This document shows, in pieces, positions 5,715 through 38,533 of a DNA stretch of 64,000 nt. Within the stretch, counting starts at the first letter, position 1; every line of letters begins with the position of its first letter. The DNA comes from Escherichia phage vB_EcoM-ZQ3. Made by a program: the position numbers and the translations under genes. The notes under the pieces are model-generated. The model saw only the letters and a list, made by a program, of their open reading frames with translations, ran no database searches and was not told where the DNA came from. The stretch is from sequence record MW630116.1; one strand, given 5' to 3'.

Positions 5715-7163
5715 TTAAGCTGTAGGAAGTTCAACCCATGCACCGTCTTTGCGAACATAGAATTTACCGTCTGAAGGAGCATCTTCAATATATCCAGCTT
5801 CCTTAAGAGTTTGGATTTCAGCTTCTGCGGCGGCCAAATCAGTTTCAAGAGTAGCAATTCTAGAAGTTAAACCATTAATTGTCGTATCGTGACTTTTAAC
5901 TGTAGGCAATATACCACGTTCTTCAACAGTCGAACCATTTGGGTTGGTGCCGTTTATAAGAGTATTTAATGTGTTTACAGAACCCTTAATCCCTGTGGTA
6001 TTAGTCCCAACATCAGTTTGAATGTTCTGAATGTCATTACTCATCTCACCGATAGATCCTTCAAGCGCTCGAGTACGATAAAGCAAAGAGCCGGCTGGTT
6101 CCGGTTTCCCACCTGAAGCGTCAACACCAACTACGTTATTTAACCATGACACATTAAAACGCAATCCTGACGAAGAATCAGAGCCGACAACAGTGTTCAA
6201 TGCTCCGATAGCATCAGTATTGAGTTTAATACGTCCTTGGATTGTAGTAGGCAAATCATCGGTGCCAATGGCAGTTTCTACTGTAGTCAAACGAGGTTTA
6301 ATACCACCTGATTGATTGAGCTCAAGATTAATGTCGTTTATTGCTGAACTATTCGCATTAGTTGTAGTAATAATAGAAGTCGTATTAGGATACCCAATAG
6401 ACTGTTTAATGCCATCTAAGTCAGCATTTTGACGCGACAAAGTTAAATCAATACCGGAAAGACGACTAAATACTGGAGTAGTGAAAGAAGTGCGAGGTCC
6501 CATTTCTTCGCGTAAGTGTTCGACTTCATTAGTTAAAGAGCCGACGTCAGAATCAGCAAATTTAGTTTCTAGATCAGTTAATCGAACACCGTGGTCAACA
6601 ATCACGGAGCTATTAGTCATAATACGGCGTTTCATACCAGTGCTATCATTTCCTGGAGTAGGAACCCCATTAATATCTTGACCAGTATATTGTCCTAATT
6701 CATTTTTAATCCAAAGCAGGTCGTTACGAACGGTTCTATAAACTGAATCTGTTTCCTGATTATAAACACCAATATCATCAGTATTCGCATCAATATGTTC
6801 ATTCAAATCATTCAATTCACTAGCATGGGTTTGAACTGTGACTTTAATGACATCAATATCTTGGGTGTTCTGACCAATCTGTGCAAGTGCTTCGACGTCC
6901 CCGGAAACATCTAAAATACCTTGAATAACTTTTATATCTTCATTGGCTGTATTCAAAGAAGATGCTATAGTTTTAATATTAGTATCTAACGCTTCTACGT
7001 TACGTTGAACTTCAACAATAGGACGGTTCATTACACCTTCAGAACCGTATTTTGTATCAGCACCGGTAATTTCTTCGTCGTTTTTAATCCATTCAATACG
7101 ACTCTGACCCGCGTCTGGCGGGCCGTCAACATATGGTAAATCTACCAGAGTTATATCAGCCAT
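5715..7163 (-). CDS. wac: Fibritin (whisker protein, wac)
   Basis: 482 aa coiled-coil protein; conserved N-terminus and C-terminal foldon-like GYIEDAPSDGKFYVRKDGAWVEL. Confidence 0.88.
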   Translation of the reverse strand: MADITLVDLPYVDGPPDAGQSRIEWIKNDEEITGADTKYGSEGVMNRPIVEVQRNVEALDTNIKTIASSLNTANEDIKVIQGILDVSGDVEALAQIGQNTQDIDVIKVTVQTHASELNDLNEHIDANTDDIGVYNQETDSVYRTVRNDLLWIKNELGQYTGQDINGVPTPGNDSTGMKRRIMTNSSVIVDHGVRLTDLETKFADSDVGSLTNEVEHLREEMGPRTSFTTPVFSRLSGIDLTLSRQNADLDGIKQSIGYPNTTSIITTTNANSSAINDINLELNQSGGIKPRLTTVETAIGTDDLPTTIQGRIKLNTDAIGALNTVVGSDSSSGLRFNVSWLNNVVGVDASGGKPEPAGSLLYRTRALEGSIGEMSNDIQNIQTDVGTNTTGIKGSVNTLNTLINGTNPNGSTVEERGILPTVKSHDTTINGLTSRIATLETDLAAAEAEIQTLKEAGYIEDAPSDGKFYVRKDGAWVELPTA

Positions 7164-30911: not shown

Positions 30912-31139
30912 ATGGCTACAGTTAGTATTGATGTCGTTGATTATGAATACACCGAAGAAGTTATTCGCAGCCGTCACCCTGAAGTTCGTATCGATTCAGT
31001 CCAAGATTCCAAGTTTTGGACAACCGAGCTTAATCTGAGTGGTCCTTATGAAGCTGTTAAGAAGTTCATGGTTGAAGAATACTGCGAAGGCATGCACCCC
31101 GAAGACGCCGAGTTTTATGTCAATTTGATTAAAAAATAA
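30912..31139 (+). CDS. Hypothetical protein
   Basis: 75 aa; GGAGAAA RBS. Confidence 0.5.
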   Translation: MATVSIDVVDYEYTEEVIRSRHPEVRIDSVQDSKFWTTELNLSGPYEAVKKFMVEEYCEGMHPEDAEFYVNLIKK

Positions 31140-31211
31140 TTTACAAACTCTTGAGAGCAGAGTATAATGCTCTCATTGGATAATAAACACCACCAATTGA
31201 AAGGTAATAAT

Positions 31212-31805
31212 ATGAACACACTGAAGAAACTTGTTGAATTCATCCGCACTAAACTGGGTACTGCTATGGCTAAAAATCTGACTGTCGAAGAACAGTATAA
31301 CGCAGCTGCAGATAAGTTGATTACCCAAATCAAAGAACTAAAAACGGCTTCTGTTAAATCTATTAATGAAGAAAAACGTATTCGCGAACTTGTTATTGAA
31401 AAGAATAAGCAAGCCGCTTCTAAGGAACGTGAAATTCGTAAGCTCCTGGCTGAAGGACAAGATGTTACCATGCATGCTAAGCTTGGTCTTCTGTATCGTC
31501 GAACTGCCGAACAACTTAATACAAAAGCTGACGGGTACGCTGCTATGCGAATTGAAATTGCTCGTAAGGTGGTTGAACTTGACGATGCTCGTCAGAATCT
31601 GGCAATCAAACTCGAATACATTCGTGAAACTCGAGCAGCTAATGCCCTTGGTATCTCTACGGCTGATGATGTAATTGAAATCGCTGCACTAACTAAGGTT
31701 GATATCGAAGACACTCTGACTCGTGTTGAAACGTTCAATGGCACACCAGCTGGTGTCGAAACCACTTCTGCTGATGTACAAGAATATATTAACTCTTTGA
31801 AATAA
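31212..31805 (+). CDS. Hypothetical coiled-coil protein
   Basis: 197 aa; heptad-rich; promoter cassette upstream. Confidence 0.5.
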
Positions 31806-31813
31806 AATAATAC

Positions 31814-31835
31814 GGAGGACTCCGGTCCTCCTTTT
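31814..31835 (+). terminator. Rho-independent terminator
   Basis: GGAGGAC-TCCG-GTCCTCC then TTTT. Confidence 0.55.
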
Positions 31836-31854
31836 GGATAATAAAGGAGTTAAC

Positions 31855-32277
31855 ATGCGAAACCAAAATAATGATATTGACTCAATGTTCGAAGAGTTCC
31901 GAAATAAGGTAAATCCACCTACGTCTTTAGTTGATTCATTACGATATGTTGCAACTGGACGTAAATGGTACTGGTCGTCTTCTTATGAGACAACTGAATA
32001 TGCAAATAACCGAAAATCTTTATTAGCCCCAGGTATTATGATTCATGATATCGGAGCTATTGCTAAACTAGTTGCGGACCATGATATTAGATTCACTGAT
32101 TTCGTTGCTCCTACGTGGTCTGTTTGTTGTTTAAACACTGAATGGGACTATATCAGTGAACGCTCTGAAGATTATTATGGTTTTAGAGATAAGCTCTTAA
32201 GGTCTAACATGTTTTATATCGATACTGAAGTTCTAGTCGATAATAAAATATTACTTTACGTTAATCGTCGATTCTGA
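31855..32277 (+). CDS. Hypothetical protein
   Basis: 140 aa from ATG after AGGAG. Confidence 0.5.
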   Translation: MRNQNNDIDSMFEEFRNKVNPPTSLVDSLRYVATGRKWYWSSSYETTEYANNRKSLLAPGIMIHDIGAIAKLVADHDIRFTDFVAPTWSVCCLNTEWDYISERSEDYYGFRDKLLRSNMFYIDTEVLVDNKILLYVNRRF

Positions 32278-32417
32278 AACTATGTATGAAGGCAAGCCTT
32301 TGCTTAAAAGAGTTGATGCTTTAAGTGCTATTGATGCGCTTTATGAAACCATGGTTGTTAGTCCTAATTTCACTAACAATTTAATCCTTGAGCAATTTAT
32401 TATGGAATGTAGAGAAT

Positions 32418-32813
32418 ATGTCAAAGCCAACCCTATACATGCCAATTAAGCCCTGGGCATACGAATACAAACGTAAATTAATCCCAAACGAAGTACTATT
32501 TGGCCCTATTTTAGCTTTAGCGTTTTTAATCTTTATGATTATAGGAGCTGTTTTAGATTCCAATAAAGTTATATCGTCTGATGCAGCGTTTTCATTAATG
32601 TTCGTCGCACCACTTATTGTACCATTTTTATTAATGCCTATTAATTGGGCAGGATATTGGCACCAAGGCCGTCATCACAGAGCTCGAGTTCGTGAGTGGA
32701 AAGTTCAGTGCGCAAAAGCCCAAGCTCAGTATGATGAAGCTGTTAAAAAGTATGAATACGAAGAAGCTATGGAATTCGTTAAGGAAATAAGATGCAAAAG
32801 CCTCAACTCTTAA
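32418..32813 (+). CDS. Predicted membrane protein
   Basis: 132 aa with two hydrophobic segments. Confidence 0.5.
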   Translation: MSKPTLYMPIKPWAYEYKRKLIPNEVLFGPILALAFLIFMIIGAVLDSNKVISSDAAFSLMFVAPLIVPFLLMPINWAGYWHQGRHHRARVREWKVQCAKAQAQYDEAVKKYEYEEAMEFVKEIRCKSLNS

Positions 32814-33043
32814 CCGTATGGCCGTCTCTTGGTGAGAACATTCTAATTTTTATTATGAGTATTGGCATGGGATTTGCCTTTGGATTAGTTGGATTTCTTA
32901 TTGACGGCGTTGTGTTAGGATTTATAGGGAACACTGGTGGATTCACAGACCAATGGCAGGACCTAAGATACACCCAAGCCTTTGCATCTATCGCATCATT
33001 TTGTACTGTAAGTCTATTTTTACTACGATTTTATAAACCATAA
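32792..33043 (+). CDS. Predicted membrane protein
   Basis: 83 aa, hydrophobic; overlaps the upstream gene. Confidence 0.45.
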   Translation: MQKPQLLTVWPSLGENILIFIMSIGMGFAFGLVGFLIDGVVLGFIGNTGGFTDQWQDLRYTQAFASIASFCTVSLFLLRFYKP

Positions 33044-33148
33044 CAAGAAAAATAAAAAGGTTTACGCTTCTCAAATGATTAGTTATAATGAACTCCTAGC
33101 TAGACGTGAAAATGAAACAATAGAAAACTTTATTAAGGAATGTAGAAA

Positions 33149-33454
33149 ATGAGTAAGATTATTGAAATTAAAGTACCAGAGTTTAATGATGCTAAATCCG
33201 CTTCAGATGCAATTTATAAACTTCTGAATCAAGCTGAACGTATCGAAGAAGAAGCAACAAAGATCGCAGACCAATATGCCGTATCATTTTCTGTAGGTGA
33301 TTATGGTAGTGGTCGTACTTATTATCCTAAGGGTGAAATTGTATCCCAGTGGATGAAAGATGAAATTGAAAATAATGGTGGTGATGTTAAACGTGAAGGT
33401 AATGGTTACGTTATTACTGAAGGTGCTTGGGTTTCGTCTTCTTCGATGTGCTAA
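33149..33454 (+). CDS. Small protein, member 1 of a tandem paralogous triplet (C-terminal GAWVSSSSMC)
   Basis: 101 aa; shares the helical N-terminus and C-terminal G-W-[VI]-[SA]-S-S-x-x-C tail with the next two ORFs. Confidence 0.55.
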   Translation: MSKIIEIKVPEFNDAKSASDAIYKLLNQAERIEEEATKIADQYAVSFSVGDYGSGRTYYPKGEIVSQWMKDEIENNGGDVKREGNGYVITEGAWVSSSSMC

Positions 33455-33463
33455 GGAATCATT

Positions 33464-33736
33464 ATGTCTAAAGAACAAACCGAACTGGCTGAAGCCGTAG
33501 CAAAAATCTATGCAGCTATTGAGGCTGCCAAAGAAATTGCTGATAAACAAAACACAACATTCGACTTGTATCCGGCTTATGGTATGGGTGGAACCTATCA
33601 TTCACCCGGACAACTTAAAGCCGATCTTGAACGTTGTACAAAAAACGGCTATGCTGAATGGGCTGACGTTTACCAATACGACTACAACCTGAGCCTCGAA
33701 ACTGGTGGTTGGATTGCATCTTCTCATACTTGCTAA
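33464..33736 (+). CDS. Small protein, member 2 of the triplet (C-terminal GGWIASSHTC)
   Basis: 90 aa; similar intergenic spacer gctaaggaa..atg. Confidence 0.55.
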   Translation: MSKEQTELAEAVAKIYAAIEAAKEIADKQNTTFDLYPAYGMGGTYHSPGQLKADLERCTKNGYAEWADVYQYDYNLSLETGGWIASSHTC

Positions 33737-33745
33737 GGAAACCAT

Positions 33746-33943
33746 ATGTCTCGTGAATTAGATTGTGCTGTACGTACCGCAGTAGCTGCTCTGGAAAACC
33801 TGTTCCAAATTGCAACAGAAGAACGCGAAGAAGTTACATTGTGGATTGAAGATAACGCAGGTCTGAATCTCCAGGACGCGATCTCATTATCCAATAATAG
33901 CATTACTGTTCAAGGCTGGGTATCATCTAGTTATTCTTGCTAA
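33746..33943 (+). CDS. Small protein, member 3 of the triplet (C-terminal QGWVSSSYSC)
   Basis: 65 aa. Confidence 0.55.
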   Translation: MSRELDCAVRTAVAALENLFQIATEEREEVTLWIEDNAGLNLQDAISLSNNSITVQGWVSSSYSC

Positions 33944-34005
33944 AACAGTTTACAACAAGATAGGGCTATGTTATAGTAGTCCTATCAAATTAAATGGAGT
34001 CCACA

Positions 34006-34245
34006 ATGATTTATTACGAAAGTATCGGAACCAAAGTGGTTGGTAAAACCATTACTCGTGAAAAGTTTGCAAAGATATTCGATATGCGTTATAAAAAATC
34101 TGAACACAAAGGCATCCGATTCGAAGATGCACATTGTACAATTTGCCCTTATAATGAAGATATAAATGGTACAATCGTTCCATTGGTAGAGGCTTCACAT
34201 GACGACCTCTGGGATGAATATAATATCGCATGTCGCGAAATTTAA
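34006..34245 (+). CDS. Hypothetical protein
   Basis: ATGGAG...ATG arrangement: the first ATG supplies GGAG as SD for the second; 79 aa. Confidence 0.45.
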   Translation: MIYYESIGTKVVGKTITREKFAKIFDMRYKKSEHKGIRFEDAHCTICPYNEDINGTIVPLVEASHDDLWDEYNIACREI

Positions 34246-34270
34246 GTAATCTAAATTCGAGGAAATTATT

Positions 34271-35227
34271 ATGATGTTAGTTATTGGTTCTCGTGCACTT
34301 CACTATCACGGTCTTATTGATTCTAACGCTATCAAAAATAGTGACTGGGACTTTATTGCAGACCAAGGTTCTTGGAATGCATTCAAAAATCAAATGATGG
34401 GTGTATATGTTCATCAAGATAACCCTGATGTCCAAGTTTTCAAATGCTTCCATAACGGACGCGAAACTCATTTTGAAGCATATATTGTTCCGGCAATCAC
34501 TAATGTCCGTGAACTAGTCGGTGAACTCACTCCTGAAGATTTCACGTCTTCTTATGACCTTTTAAAATACGCCAAGAAAAATTTGACTAAAGACCGTTTG
34601 AACGGGTTTTACTGGGCAACTCCTGAGATGTGCCTTGCAATTAAGATGTCTCATCGTTTCAAGAAAAATAATCCATTCTTTTTAAAGACTATGAACCATA
34701 TTCAGTATCTTCGTGGTAAAGGTGTTAAACTGAATGATGAACTTACTGAAATTATGCTGAAACGTCAGAAAGAAACCTTGAACTATGCTCACCCAGTTCT
34801 TGACACTTCTAAAAGTGCGTTCTTTAAAGATGACATCTATACATATGACCATGATACTATTCATGAAGCCATTGCACTAACAGACCGTCCAGCATATACA
34901 TTTTATATGAAAGACGGTTCTGAAGTCATGACCTCACGCGAGAAGTTCGAATCGTTACCAGAAATGGTCAAATTGGCCGGTGTATATGAAGAATCATGTG
35001 TACTAGCATTAGAACGTTCTCAGATTCCTAATGGCTTTGAAATCCATCCTCGTGATAGTTTTATGATGGCATTAGAAAAGGTCTGTACTTCAATCACATC
35101 AGGCTGGTTCCGTGAGTATGCCTGGGAGAACTACAGCAAAGTAGTAAGTATGTACCAAAGCTTAGGACATGATGATTACGTCAAACGTTTCAAACAAAAT
35201 TTCCATATGGTAAAACCTTTCAAATAA
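34271..35227 (+). CDS. Hypothetical protein, possible nucleotidyltransferase fold (weak)
   Basis: 318 aa; N-terminal IGSRAL...SDWDF loosely fits the G[GS]...D-x-D signature but with longer spacing than usual. Confidence 0.45.
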   Translation: MMLVIGSRALHYHGLIDSNAIKNSDWDFIADQGSWNAFKNQMMGVYVHQDNPDVQVFKCFHNGRETHFEAYIVPAITNVRELVGELTPEDFTSSYDLLKYAKKNLTKDRLNGFYWATPEMCLAIKMSHRFKKNNPFFLKTMNHIQYLRGKGVKLNDELTEIMLKRQKETLNYAHPVLDTSKSAFFKDDIYTYDHDTIHEAIALTDRPAYTFYMKDGSEVMTSREKFESLPEMVKLAGVYEESCVLALERSQIPNGFEIHPRDSFMMALEKVCTSITSGWFREYAWENYSKVVSMYQSLGHDDYVKRFKQNFHMVKPFK

Positions 35228-35306
35228 TTTCACCAAACTGTTTACAAGGTCTGTAGTTGTTGATACTATAGACCTATCAAAACAAATGAGTGAATGGAGA
35301 TACAAA

Positions 35307-35507
35307 ATGACTACTTTGAATAAACGTTTCGGTAAAGCTAAACCTGGCTGTGCAGCAGAACGTCGTTACATTTTCGCTCAGTTAGAAGATGTAGAGTATC
35401 AGATTAATCAAGTTCACATTACTGGCATCGAGCCTATGTGTGGCCTTGAAGCTCTTCGTGAAGTTCGTGACGGGTATCGTCGTGATATCGAAGAAATGTC
35501 AAAATAA
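35307..35507 (+). CDS. Hypothetical protein
   Basis: 66 aa from the second ATG of an ATGGAG...ATG arrangement. Confidence 0.45.
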   Translation: MTTLNKRFGKAKPGCAAERRYIFAQLEDVEYQINQVHITGIEPMCGLEALREVRDGYRRDIEEMSK

Positions 35508-35565
35508 GTGTACAAACTGATAGGGCTATGTTATAGTAGTCCTATTAAAACATGAGGAGAATAAT

Positions 35566-35871
35566 ATGAAATTAACAGAAACCAACCGAATTGGCCTTTT
35601 AACGATACTTACATCACCTTTTTATGCTGTGCTTTCTGTTGCAGTATTACAAAAGGCCTATGGCATGGACGGTGTTCCTGGTTGTGTATTTTTATCACCG
35701 TTTTTGTTATTAGTTGGTGCTCTGTTATTATACGCGACAACAGGTTTCGACCATAATGTTTGGGTCAAGTTTAAACGTAGATTAACTGAAGAAGAACACG
35801 CTGAAGCTCGTAAAAAAGCTATTGAATCTACCAATCTAGAAAATTTCATTAAAGAATGTCGAGGAAAATAA
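35566..35871 (+). CDS. Predicted membrane protein ending in the NFIKECR module
   Basis: 101 aa with two hydrophobic helices; C-terminal ...LENFIKECRGK. Confidence 0.5.
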   Translation: MKLTETNRIGLLTILTSPFYAVLSVAVLQKAYGMDGVPGCVFLSPFLLLVGALLLYATTGFDHNVWVKFKRRLTEEEHAEARKKAIESTNLENFIKECRGK

Positions 35872-35872
35872 T

Positions 35873-36559
35873 ATGAATAGTTCTAAAGTGTTTAATAGTC
35901 AAGCTCGTGCAGTAGGTGGTTTTGCTCATGCGATTAAAAATGACCAGATTAAAAACGAGCCTATGTTCTTCAACTGTAGTTTAGAATTTGCTTATAATAA
36001 CGGTGGTCCTATTACTCGCAGCTTCATCATGAACTTGCCTGATGATTGGAACACCGACCAGGTTGTATTTGATTCACGGGTCCACATGCTGATGCCTGGT
36101 TGGTACCCTGCTATCCCGGGTTATCACCATGATGATGTACCACGCCCGGATATTCCGGTTGGTCAACACTTTATTACTGCAGGACAACCTGATTATGACA
36201 ATCCTCGCTATTTGTCTGAACATATTCTTGGTCTTGTTAACGCTGATGTGTGTCCTACTCATTTTGCAACAGGAACTGCAGAGTTCAGTCAGATTCCTGA
36301 TGGCGAACTTATCTATCGCCAGTGGCACAAAGAAGTCCTCGAAAAAATTGAAAAAGGTGAACTAGAGAAATGGGAAGCTCCAGATCGTACTCTTCTTCAG
36401 TTTGATTGGCAAACATGGCACACTGGTTCTCGTGCAATTAGTAATGGATGGCGTTGGTTCGGACGTGTATCTCGTAATACAGACCGAGTTAAAAAGATTA
36501 CCAATGAAATTCGTGTCAATGCTCAAGTTTATCTGGAATTCCCTATGGAAGGCTGGTAA
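35873..36559 (+). CDS. Hypothetical protein
   Basis: 228 aa; His/Asp-rich segment (HHDDVP); no family assigned. Confidence 0.5.
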   Translation: MNSSKVFNSQARAVGGFAHAIKNDQIKNEPMFFNCSLEFAYNNGGPITRSFIMNLPDDWNTDQVVFDSRVHMLMPGWYPAIPGYHHDDVPRPDIPVGQHFITAGQPDYDNPRYLSEHILGLVNADVCPTHFATGTAEFSQIPDGELIYRQWHKEVLEKIEKGELEKWEAPDRTLLQFDWQTWHTGSRAISNGWRWFGRVSRNTDRVKKITNEIRVNAQVYLEFPMEGW

Positions 36560-36652
36560 TGATTAACAAAACATATTGGTCTTAATATAGACGATGGCAA
36601 CGAAGGTATTTCATACTATTCAGTAGATTGGACAGGATGTCCATCCTACTTA

Positions 36653-36964
36653 GTGAAACATATTTGCCAAGAATTTAAAATCGACCAGCCAGCAGGTATT
36701 ATCGTGAACAGATACATTAATGGATATCAACCTATCGATGAAGTAATACGAACAACTCAAGCTGAGCTTGAAAAGTTTTTCAATAAGTGCCAATGGATAA
36801 CAGGATGGATTATATTTGTACCGTCTATATGGTTTTTCAGTACTAAGGTGAGTTCTTTCGGTTTTGTTGATATTATTGCTATCTTATTAGCATCTAGTAT
36901 CATAAGTGTTGTTGGTGGCATCATTGGCGGCGGTACCGCCGCCATCATTATTAAATCTTATTAA
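36653..36964 (+). CDS. Predicted membrane protein with C-terminal glycine zipper; start codon uncertain
   Basis: ORF has no in-frame ATG (GTG at 36653); C-terminal VVGGIIGGGTAAIII. Confidence 0.35.
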   Translation: MKHICQEFKIDQPAGIIVNRYINGYQPIDEVIRTTQAELEKFFNKCQWITGWIIFVPSIWFFSTKVSSFGFVDIIAILLASSIISVVGGIIGGGTAAIIIKSY

Positions 36965-37048
36965 AAGTAGTTTACAAGAACATAAAGCCAAGATAAAGGC
37001 CAAGAATAATGAAGTTGAACGTTTTATTACCGAATGCAGGAATTTGAG

Positions 37049-37285
37049 ATGAGTATAGCAATTTACATTAAATCAGAATCATGTGATAGTTATCTGTACA
37101 CATACGATAAAGACGTGTCAGAAGAAAAAATCAAAGACGATCTTAATATGGACCTTGATATGTTCTGTCCTATTGCAGATTACAAACTTGCGGTCTCTAA
37201 TAGTGAAAGTCCATCTAAAGAAACGCGCATTGAAGAATTTATGTCCGAATTAATGGCTAAATCATGGGACCGAGATGATGAGTAA
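37049..37285 (+). CDS. Hypothetical acidic protein
   Basis: 78 aa; ATG overlaps the stop of a short upstream reading frame. Confidence 0.45.
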   Translation: MSIAIYIKSESCDSYLYTYDKDVSEEKIKDDLNMDLDMFCPIADYKLAVSNSESPSKETRIEEFMSELMAKSWDRDDE

Positions 37286-37732
37286 GAAAAATAAAGTGAA
37301 AGAACTATCAGCCGGTATTATTTTCCTTACCGAAGATAAAGAATTATTCATGGGGCGTGTAACTGGTTCTCGTCCTAAAGGTTCTTTAGCTCATCGGTGG
37401 GATATTCCTAAAGGACGTGTCGAGCCCGCCGAATCTCCTATTGAAGCCGCTATTCGCGAATGCGAAGAAGAAACTGGGTTTACACAATATGACCTGCCTT
37501 CCTGAAAGACCTAGGTGAACATCATTACTCAGACAATAAGAATATTCATCTGTTCCTATATACCATCCCTGTAGAGCACGAGCAATTCAGAAACAGTGTT
37601 TGTAATTCCTATCATACATTCCCAGACGGACGACAGATTCCTGAATTTGATGCATTCGCTTTAATTAAACCTTCTCAATGGGAATATGTAATGGGCAAAT
37701 CATTATATAAGGTGCTCACTACCCTCCTATAA
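37275..37732 (+). pseudogene. nudE: Nudix hydrolase (nudE / e.1 homolog) split by a -1 frameshift
   Basis: Frame A 37275..37505 carries the Nudix box GRVEPAESPIEAAIRECEEETG then stops; the homolog continues in the -1 frame 37499..37732 (LKDLGEHHYSD...); summed length about 153 aa, like T4 NudE. Confidence 0.6.
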
Positions 37733-37740
37733 GTAATAAA

Positions 37741-37764
37741 TACCTCCTATAAACGTGGGAGGTA
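37741..37764 (+). promoter_or_regulatory. Hairpin spanning the RBS of gene e with an internal late-promoter-like element
   Basis: TACCTCC-tataaacgtg-GGAGGTA; right arm is the e SD; loop holds TATAAACG (6/8 to TATAAATA); matches the arrangement described for T4 gene e. Confidence 0.5.
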
Positions 37765-37766
37765 TT

Positions 37767-38255
37767 ATGAATATATTTGAAATGCTTCGTAATGACGAAG
37801 GTCTTAGACTGACTTTATACAAAGACACCGAAGGCTTTTGGACGATTGGCATAGGCCATTTAGTAACAAAGAACCCGTCTTTAGCCGTAGCTAAAGCTGA
37901 ACTTGACAGAATGATCGGTCGTAAATGCAACGGTACAATTACCCTTGATGAGGCTGAAAAGCTATTTAATGAAGACGTTGATAAAGCCGTTCGCGGAATC
38001 TTGGGTAATGCTAAACTTAAACCGGTATATGATTCTTTAGATGCAGTTCGTCGATGTGCATTGGTCAATATGGTCTTCCAAATGGGTGTAGCAGGCGTCG
38101 CAGGTTTTACTAATTCTCTTCGTATGCTTCAACAGAAACGTTGGGATGAAGCGGCAGTAAATCTAGCCCAATCTAAATGGTATCGTCAGACACCTAATCG
38201 CGCGAAACGCGTAATCTCAACATTTAAAACAGGAACTTGGAAAGCGTATATATGA
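37767..38255 (+). CDS. e: Endolysin (T4 lysozyme, gene e)
   Basis: 162 aa; [32 protein letters not shown]... near-identical to T4 lysozyme. Confidence 0.95.
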
Positions 38256-38533
38256 AAACATATAGTGAATTTTTATCAGAATCTATTCTTAACGAAGCTA
38301 CTGACACATTTGCAACTAAGCTAGGTGCAGCTTTGGTTGAAGCTGAAAGTCTATTAGCACGTATTTCTGAACTTGCTAGTAAGATAGATACTCGCAAATT
38401 TGAGCGCACCAGTGATATCGTTAAGCTTGAAGCCTTGTTGCGTATGTGTGATAAACCGGAAGAAATCGCTAAGAACGGCTCGCTGATGAAACAACGTCTT
38501 GAAAAATATATTTCAGGCGCTTCAGAAAAATAG
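38252..38533 (+). CDS. Internal-protein-like gene with capsid-targeting sequence [10 protein letters not shown]
   Basis: 93 aa; ATGA overlap with the e stop; position of ipIII/ipII in T4. Confidence 0.6.

Follow-up and report, generated by a model that had tools for sequence, protein, structure and literature searches.

More than 100 genes of bacteriophage T4 and its relatives still lack a known function, and the block from the tRNA genes to e (the tRNA-to-e cluster) is among the least understood. In T4, the C-terminal tails of gp43, gp33, and gp55 bind the sliding clamp (gp45), and the internal proteins carry the N-terminal capsid-targeting sequence MKTYQEFIAE; regulatory leader and arrest peptides include TnaC, SecM, and the erm leaders. 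The hyperplastic regions of T4-type phages also contain PeSL cassettes, which are mobile regulatory promoter/stem-loop cassettes (Arbiol et al. 2010, PMC2839356) described as non-coding promoter-plus-terminator units conserved as DNA (PMC2839356). Here, a 64,000-nucleotide (nt) stretch of Escherichia phage vB_EcoM-ZQ3 (MW630116.1; hereafter the window) was analyzed with regard to a short peptide of the form FIxECR that recurs at gene ends between e.6 and nudE. It is a real, previously unremarked C-terminal motif uniting known but uncharacterized T4-type accessory genes. No annotation or paper on a C-terminal motif common to these families was found in the databases and literature searched; literature searches on these genes or on the motif returned nothing, the PeSL paper being the one related find, and the CRISPRi-ART T4 paper, which was looked up, does not mention e.2–e.6.

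The terminal peptide and the genes that carry it

The pattern TTYATTANNGAATGYNGR had exactly four matches in the window (32396, 33129, 35845, and 37023), all on the plus strand, and none in 100 dinucleotide-preserving shuffles, so the recurrence at four frame ends proposed in an earlier sequence-only reading is real. The peptide FI.EC[RK], searched in the six-frame translation, likewise occurred at these four sites exclusively. The count in that reading held for the strict copies and omitted a fifth, divergent copy that ends e.4 and overlaps the ATG of e.3; no further open reading frame (ORF) in the window ends with the motif. At the five fixed residues (F, I, E, C, and R), the four strict copies use TTT/TTT/TTC/TTT for Phe, ATT and GAA throughout for Ile and Glu, TGT/TGT/TGT/TGC for Cys, and AGA/AGA/CGA/AGG for Arg, and all differences are synonymous, in agreement with what had been noted. 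The closeness of the next start codon was borne out as well, with ATGs (32418, 33149, 35873, and 37049) located 4, 2, 10, and 8 nt after the Arg codon, respectively.

The 5.5 kb around the motif cluster showed 95–96% identity to more than 100 complete Mosigvirus genomes (RB69-like, Tevenvirinae), and represent the Mosigvirus (RB69-like) e.6-to-lysozyme cluster. In the annotated relatives SA35RD and ATK48, the gene order is e.6, e.5, e.4, and e.3, followed by three small paralogues of the RB69ORF139c group, genes of 80, 318, and 66 amino acids (aa), RB69ORF133c, a 228-aa gene, e.2, a 78-aa gene, nudE, and e (lysozyme). The motif genes are placed between e.6 and nudE/e in the same order in SA35RD, ATK48, T4, SP18, and JS10. 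Synteny and DNA identity to the annotated Mosigviruses, together with T4 orthologues bearing the same tails, show that the motif copies close the coding sequences of e.5, e.4, e.3, RB69ORF133c, and e.2, all of them known hypothetical genes. Before their stop codons, the SA35RD proteins end in ...LEQFIMECREYVKANPIHAK (e.5; 198 aa, soluble), ...IENFIKECRK (e.3; 119 aa, membrane), ...LENFIKECRGK (ORF133c; 101 aa, membrane), and ...VECFITECRNLR (e.2; 163 aa, membrane). The 101-aa membrane protein to which the sequence-only reading had assigned one copy is thus the RB69ORF133c homologue, which is intact. Searches with the intact SA35RD orthologues, whose DNA is 95–96% identical to the window here, assigned e.2, e.3, e.4, e.5, and ORF133c to PHROGs 2203, 2330, 2604, 2607, and 9798 (E-values 4.5e-50 to 7.2e-94), with an additional weak match of ORF133c to the e.2 family PHROG 2203. 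Precomputed Pfam assignments were PF26896 for e.2 and PF26876 for e.5.

In T4, e.5 ends in ...EKFVKECREYVKAITIPSK, e.4 in ...MKFVKESRCKSQS, and e.3 in ...KEFVIDCRKIK, each followed by the stop codon, and an unannotated ...NLNNFITECRKLK-stop located directly before nudE corresponds to the e.2 tail. Two frameshifts disrupt the e.2 gene of reference T4 (NC_000866; locus L004, 492..961, minus strand), which is annotated with 102 aa; its second transmembrane segment and motif-bearing tail run on in other frames up to nudE. Three T4-like IMG/VR contigs have an unbroken e.2 of 164 aa. The annotated start of T4 nudE (MQEIKM...) is an ATG inside the GAATGC of the motif, and an ATG situated 15 nt downstream (MKTLSAG...) fits other phages; the annotated start is doubtful.

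When other T4-like genomes were compared, a check that had been proposed from the sequence, the motif was found to end 3–6 proteins per genome in most of the 14 genera sampled, among them Mosigvirus, Tequatrovirus, Gaprivervirus, Dhakavirus, Marfavirus, Kanagawavirus, Klebsiella phage Roth21, Moonvirus, and Tegunavirus. Its general form is [FW]-[IV]-x-x-C-[RK] with a hydrophobic residue three positions before, and its consensus is [E/K]-x-x-E-[L/I/F/V/A]-[E/N/D]-x-[F/W]-[I/V]-K-E-C-[R/K]-K-stop. For twelve further genera, e.6 served as the anchor for reading the cluster; tblastn with a 22-aa tail returned e.3 orthologues only and was too insensitive for the paralogous copies, an IMG/VR scan with e.3 retrieved 5 loci only, and word-indexed protein searches yielded close relatives only. 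SP18, JS10, Marfa, PEi20, Roth21, Merlin, and phiR1-RT each have 3–6 proteins with ends of the general form, such as FIAECRE, FIKEVRN, FIKECKS, FIEECRK, FIKHCRE, FIKYCRG, WIKGCRK, WVKGCRK, FIQMCRR, FIKGCRN, WIRSCRK, FIAKCRA, FINLCRD, FIENCKN, FIMQCRM, FINSCRI, FIDQCRR, FISECRG, and FITYCRG. In Aeromonas phage avDM5 and Enterobacter phage EC-F2, a single protein after e.6 carries the motif (LFVDYCRR and KFIHSCKK). The Arg is lost in Aszh-1, the e.4-like families have I, V, M, or S in place of Cys, and the most distant relatives, WSPA and 92A1, have lost F and C, leaving a degenerate AIHEARKRVLG. Taken as a whole, the comparison of tails showed the motif to be ancient and present across at least six protein families. 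One motif turns e.5, e.4, e.3, ORF133c, and e.2, with their counterparts in many genera, into a single testable group.

Constraint on the peptide, adjacent start codons, and disrupted frames

The variability of each codon position was calculated as entropy over 39 copies from 10 genera and at least six families. For positions 1, 2, and 3, respectively, it was 0, 0.48, and 1.31 bits in the F codon, 0.98, 0.29, and 1.51 bits in the I/V codon, 0.94, 0.94, and 1.63 bits in the C codon, and 0.96, 0.55, and 1.60 bits in the R codon. Phe was substituted by Trp only (TTT to TGG), and Cys by I, V, M, L, or S only, while for Arg all six codons (AGA, AGG, CGA, CGT, CGC, and CGG) are in use, or Lys stands instead. 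Period-3 variability, replacement of F by W only, and the use of six Arg codons place the constraint on the peptide and not on an RNA motif, and no Rfam match was found in 31000..38500 at E<=1; an RNA motif was rejected on the period-3 variability and this negative search. Selection thus acts on the amino acids, not on RNA, as the sequence-only reading had supposed from two copies, and the codon-position bias, whose disappearance among more homologues would have spoken for RNA, appeared as a clear period of three in the larger set.

Regarding the distance to the following gene, the end of the motif lies a median of 4 nt before the next ATG, and the stop codon a median of -4 nt from it (ATGA overlap). 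The motif is followed by its own stop after 0 to 25 codons, with varying trailing residues; in e.5-type genes the frame runs 5–25 codons beyond the motif, and for 5 of the 39 copies the next ATG is 35–71 nt away. The ATG placed 4 nt after the e.5 Arg codon is kept in T4, Mosigvirus, SP18, and PEi20, and the residues encoded there differ (EY vs. TN). Mosigvirus records annotate the start of e.4 at a downstream ATG, 32439 (MPIKPW...), the T4-type start being ATG 32418 (MSKPTLYMPIKP...). The latter, which the T4 annotation uses and which lies 4 nt beyond the e.5 motif, is probably where e.4 really begins, and the extension of e.5 past the motif would be read-through across the first codons of e.4. 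Codons +2/+3 (AAG-GAA, AAA-GGA, AGG-AGC, and GAG-GAA) encode different amino acids (KE, KG, RS, and EE) and mostly spell AAGGA, GAGGA, or AGGAG some 9–12 nt before the next ATG, and the frequent ending ...AGA-AAA-TGA includes the ATG of the next gene. Such embedding of the next gene's Shine-Dalgarno sequence in codons +2/+3 is ordinary T4 dual coding.

These features could be read as a translation-level element. It would be an RNA motif belonging to the initiation region of the following gene, or else a leader or arrest peptide that acts on the ribosome and couples termination to re-initiation. The median spacing of 4 nt, its retention in e.5-type genes even though the stop lies 11–15 codons further, and the Shine-Dalgarno sequences supplied by codons +2/+3 would all fit such an element. 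The period-3 variability and the F-to-W and AGA-to-CGT replacements indicate protein constraint instead, however; Rfam gave no match in the region, the stop distance and the post-motif residues vary, and the only short ORFs standing by themselves are artefacts of the frameshifts seen here. Since the stop distance is variable and five copies lie 35–71 nt from an ATG, a nascent-peptide arrest or re-initiation device is unlikely, and we give the translation-level explanation as a whole hardly any credence. The motif is near the next ATG because it is C-terminal in tightly packed, overlapping genes (ATGA-type). Coupling to downstream translation, another suggestion of the sequence-only reading, is not needed, as any C-terminal motif in packed T4-type genes abuts the next start.

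The short ORFs in question arise from indels (Table 1). The window has a 2-nt deletion in e.5 (at ~32245), a 1-nt insertion in e.3 (33010), and two +1 changes in e.2 (36582 and 36953), all of which are absent from SA35RD and ATK48, as well as a change from C3 to C2 in nudE (37492); all five indels are small and located in homopolymers. The frames of e.4 and ORF133c are intact, and those of e.5, e.3, and e.2 are broken. The e.3 insertion was shared by no other phage record (split-word megablast, phage collection). Among 81 genes compared with NHEP29 (45 kb), whose proteins showed 91–99% identity to the window in tblastn, 68 matched intact; the rest were absent from the window, too diverged, or flagged for a second paralogous match only, and frames were disrupted in e.5, e.3, e.2, and nudE only. 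Either a single functional block has undergone clustered pseudogenization, or the quality of the sequence is locally poor. Within e.2, a perfect 8-bp GC-rich hairpin (TGGCGGCGGTACCGCCGCCA; 36925..36944), flagged as terminator-like by the scan, is situated inside the coding sequence directly upstream of the second frameshift.

Copies 1, 2, and 4 stand in short ORFs because e.5, e.3, and e.2 are frameshifted in this genome. The 25-aa ORF singled out in the sequence-only reading is present, at 33075..33152 and not at 33076..33153; in relatives, the same frame makes up the final 25 codons of e.3, a 119-aa membrane protein. This ORF and the 48-aa ORF at the end of e.2 are detached tails of e.3 and e.2, not genes. 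The 25-aa ORF was also said to start just after an early promoter. Its ATG sits in the spacer of the promoter-like site, hence upstream of the expected transcription start, and a transcript from the site would omit it; in the SA35RD annotation, the corresponding position bears a middle-promoter-like site. The proposal that the module marks leader peptides was rejected, as no free-standing short ORF is kept in relatives and the 25-aa frame is the product of a frameshift found in no database phage.

Table 1. Coordinates of the motif copies, their genes, and nearby sites in the window
Feature	Position	Strand	Description
e.6	31212..31805	+	197-aa coiled-coil protein, without the motif itself; PHROG 1203
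e.5	31855..32449	+	split: 31855..32277 and 32282..32449; PHROG 2607
e.4	32418..32813	+	two-transmembrane membrane protein, intact in the window; degenerate EFVKEIR at 32772..32792
e.3	32792..33152	+	split: 32792..33043 plus 25-aa ORF 33075..33152; PHROG 2330
Promoter-like site TTTACG-17-TATAAT	33061..33089	+	inside the e.3 coding sequence
RB69ORF133c homologue	35566..35871	+	101-aa two-transmembrane membrane protein, intact; PHROG 9798
e.2	36559..37052	+	pieces 36559..36585, 36653..36964, and 36906..37052 (48-aa ORF); PHROG 2203; precomputed PF26896
Motif copy 1, QFIMECR	32393..32413	+	end of e.5; 11 more codons, then overlap with e.4
Motif copy 2, NFIKECR	33126..33146	+	end of e.3; stop overlaps the next gene's ATG 33149
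Motif copy 3, NFIKECR(GK-stop)	35842..35862	+	end of ORF133c; next gene begins at 35873
Motif copy 4, RFITECR(NLR-stop)	37020..37040	+	end of e.2; stop overlaps the next ATG 37049
Fifth, divergent copy, EFVKEIR-CKSLNS-stop	32775..32792		end of e.4; overlaps the e.3 ATG 32792

The repeats can also serve recombination. In IMG/VR contig L009 (T4-like, 168 kb; locus 6334..6420), e.2 is missing, and the junction consists of the end of T4 e.3 on the left and of the T4 e.2 tail and the start of nudE on the right. The crossover took place inside TGCAGGAAA, which is common to the e.3 and e.2 copies, and left a chimeric tail, EFVIDCRKLK-stop, fused to the nudE start. This is a concrete case of gene loss through crossover between coding repeats at gene ends, and it shows that the repeated DNA occasionally acts as microhomology for gene deletion. 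The module might on this basis be a recombination cassette, gene-end DNA that promotes in-frame deletion, duplication, and swapping and is kept alike by gene conversion. The clean deletion of e.2 in L009 and the 16–17 identical nucleotides of some copies within one genome favor such a cassette, whereas the synonymous differences within a genome and the scrambling of codons across genera with unchanged residues are the opposite of DNA-level homogenization. In phi25-307 (locus L019, 5440..6010), further deletions in the cluster took away the 228-aa gene together with the N-terminus of e.2, and also the 78-aa gene, by way of unrelated start-codon microhomologies of 4–7 nt (GAGATGA and ATAG); the module is therefore one substrate among many. 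Codon scrambling between copies argues against maintenance at the DNA level, and recombination looks like a side effect of the motif copies; we regard a recombination cassette, which would be a coding counterpart of the PeSL cassettes, as highly improbable.

Carrier proteins, e.6, and a proposed docking helix

The carriers fall into two groups, two-transmembrane membrane proteins with a 26–45-residue cytoplasmic tail (linker) and soluble proteins, the latter comprising the e.5-like proteins and a family of ~100 aa found in Marfa, PEi20, Merlin, Roth21, and phiR1-RT. In the window, e.5 is soluble, and e.4, e.3, ORF133c, and e.2 are small two-transmembrane inner-membrane proteins, the tails being predicted as cytoplasmic by the positive-inside rule and the motif standing 0–15 residues from the C-terminus. 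In local hhalign comparisons, the C-terminal tail was the best local match in nearly every pair of families. Membrane families matched one another in the tails alone, over 30–40 columns (probabilities: e4-e3 92%, e3-ORF133c 87%, and ORF133c-e2b 95%), and membrane and soluble families over 10–23 motif columns only. Accordingly, the membrane proteins probably share a homologous tail, and the soluble proteins have just the motif in common with them. An exchange of unrelated bodies on one tail had been considered, as BLASTP of e.5 against SP18 gp144 matched the tail alone; it was dropped because the hhalign profile identified SP18 gp144 as a divergent, full-length e.5 (93.8%, 162 columns).

Inheritance by itself is an alternative explanation. 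The tail would then have an intramolecular role only, the membrane families would be old tandem paralogues without a common partner, the motif would be the best-conserved turn of a stabilizing juxtamembrane helix, and e.5 would have gained it by an ancient gene-end fusion. The 30–40 tail columns common to the membrane families are consistent with paralogy, as are the similar N-termini of e.3 and e.4 (MQKP.L and MSKP.L) and the tandem arrangement of the genes. However, the same 10–15 residues end two soluble families, which have no transmembrane hairpin to pack against, and the motif is better conserved than the remaining tail, so that we consider inheritance without a partner unlikely, though it retains some weight.

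The same short terminal peptide thus occurs on otherwise dissimilar bodies (39 copies, at least six families), and hydrophobic residues at positions -3, 0, +1, and +4 are conserved. We lean, somewhat better than evenly, toward the reading that the module is a conserved C-terminus of the early accessory proteins encoded from e.6 to nudE and acts as a docking helix for a common partner. The -3, 0, +1, +4 spacing followed by basic residues would form one face of an amphipathic alpha-helix. With such a short helix, membrane and soluble proteins would dock onto one shared partner, or onto one another, on the cytoplasmic side of the inner membrane; the always-adjacent coiled-coil protein e.6 is the best candidate partner, and the near-invariant Cys beside Arg/Lys may provide a reactive thiol, metal, or disulphide contact. 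In the low-confidence AlphaFold2 (AF2) model of e.5 (predicted local distance difference test score, pLDDT, 56.5), the motif is located in a predicted terminal helix. A membrane-binding amphipathic helix of the MinD/FtsA-tail type was judged less likely, as acidic residues flank a narrow hydrophobic stripe.

Another alternative is a C-terminal stability or regulatory tag. A protease or adaptor, of host or phage origin, would recognize the hydrophobic-then-basic end, so that the early proteins are removed or controlled as a group. Most copies are within a few residues of the C-terminus and the bodies of the carriers are unrelated, as expected of a tag, yet e.5-type proteins have 5–25 further residues after the motif, and we hold this explanation to be very unlikely.

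Regarding the candidate partner, e.6 was present in 1101 phage records (tblastn). In each of the 14 genera inspected, e.6 is followed by a gene with the motif, either proper or degenerate, and the pair formed by e.6 and a motif protein remains adjacent even where the cluster sits beside nrdD (avDM5 and EC-F2). The AF2 model of e.6 (pLDDT 76) has an N-terminal helix and a helical hairpin of 55–60 residues. Sequence searches gave no family for e.6 apart from PHROG 1203, and the top matches of a fold search were BAR-domain and ESCRT-III proteins, although these matches are unspecific; e.6 as a PspA homologue is not supported by sequence. Some records label e.6 a 'host specificity protein'.

It is distinctly unlikely, but of consequence if true, that the motif is an address tag assembling the early proteins on one e.6 scaffold at the inner membrane. 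The scaffold would then hold three to four small membrane proteins and one or two soluble ones, and the predicted helix and long hairpin of e.6 would resemble the membrane-shaping BAR and ESCRT-III/PspA proteins. An address tag would define a previously unrecognized multi-protein membrane module of T4-type phages, and the joint decay of e.5, e.3, e.2, and nudE in the window would be the loss of one functional unit.

Several points weigh against the docking helix. Motif shape and conserved gene order alone form its basis, from which we infer docking, and the link between e.6 and the motif is conserved gene adjacency only. The losses of Cys in the e.4-like families, of F and C in WSPA and 92A1, and of Arg in Aszh-1 mean that no single motif residue is indispensable, and conservation at +2, +3, and +6 can be credited in part to the overlapping ribosome-binding site and the ATGA overlap. 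As e.5, e.3, and e.2 are frameshifted here and e.2 is broken in reference T4, the proteins are dispensable, at least under some conditions. The e.5 model, finally, is too poor for a fold search.

Neighboring genes and comparison with known systems

A second conserved C-terminal motif is found in the cluster, in the RB69ORF139c group. Three tandem paralogues of this group (33149..33454, 33464..33736, and 33746..33943; 65–101 aa) all end G-x-W-[VI]-[SA]-S-S-x-x-C-stop, and SP18, JS10, Marfa, PEi20, Merlin, phiR1-RT, and WSPA have 2–5 such genes ending in WVSSSxxC-stop, SSMxxC-stop, or xPSSC-stop, the last-residue Cys being invariant. Of the larger neighbors, the 318-aa protein (34271..35227) contains DUF7277 and DUF7275, and the 228-aa protein (35873..36559) was without a family here, one database record labeling a homologue as a 2OG-Fe(II) oxygenase; both are conserved in all enterobacterial genera inspected. 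Additionally, PeSL-like sites are located elsewhere in the window at 33949..33977, 35241..35269, and 35509..35537 (within 33945..33985, 35240..35280, and 35508..35548). They consist of early-promoter-like GTTTAC-N17-TATAGT sequences overlapping imperfect stem-loops, e.g., ATAGGGCTA...TAGTCCTAT, and the first and third are near-identical copies.

The motif offers a way into a group of T4 genes that are still uncharacterized and calls for no exotic mechanism. The gains for annotation are a likely start for e.4, the e.2 tail missing from the annotation of T4 (where this gene is broken), a doubtful start for T4 nudE, and three pseudogenes in the present genome.

When compared to T4, the copies in the window are the 3' ends of the orthologues of e.2, e.3, e.4, e.5, and RB69ORF133c, in the same order between e.6 and nudE; the T4-type families are catalogued separately as 'unknown function', and in the window e.5, e.3, and e.2 are frameshifted. 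Like the PeSL cassettes, the module is a short repeat at gene boundaries of a hyperplastic region, and recombination between copies removes genes (e.2 in L009); unlike them, it is coding, without a promoter hexamer pair or hairpin, and conserved as a peptide. With leader and arrest peptides it shares the position of a short conserved peptide encoded directly upstream of another gene's start, and it differs from them in lacking an independent conserved small ORF and a constant spacing to the stop, and in being the end of full-length proteins of 84–315 aa. FIKE resembles the T4 (I/L)-x-E cleavage/targeting motif, but other genera have different residues in place of Glu (FIKGCR, FIKYCR, and FINSCR), and a relation to the T4 capsid-targeting or gp21 cleavage motif (FIAE) was rejected on this ground. 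As in the clamp-binding and capsid-targeting peptides of T4, a short terminal peptide on dissimilar phage proteins would serve one partner, although the sequence and the proteins, membrane and accessory, are different, and the partner here is a candidate only.

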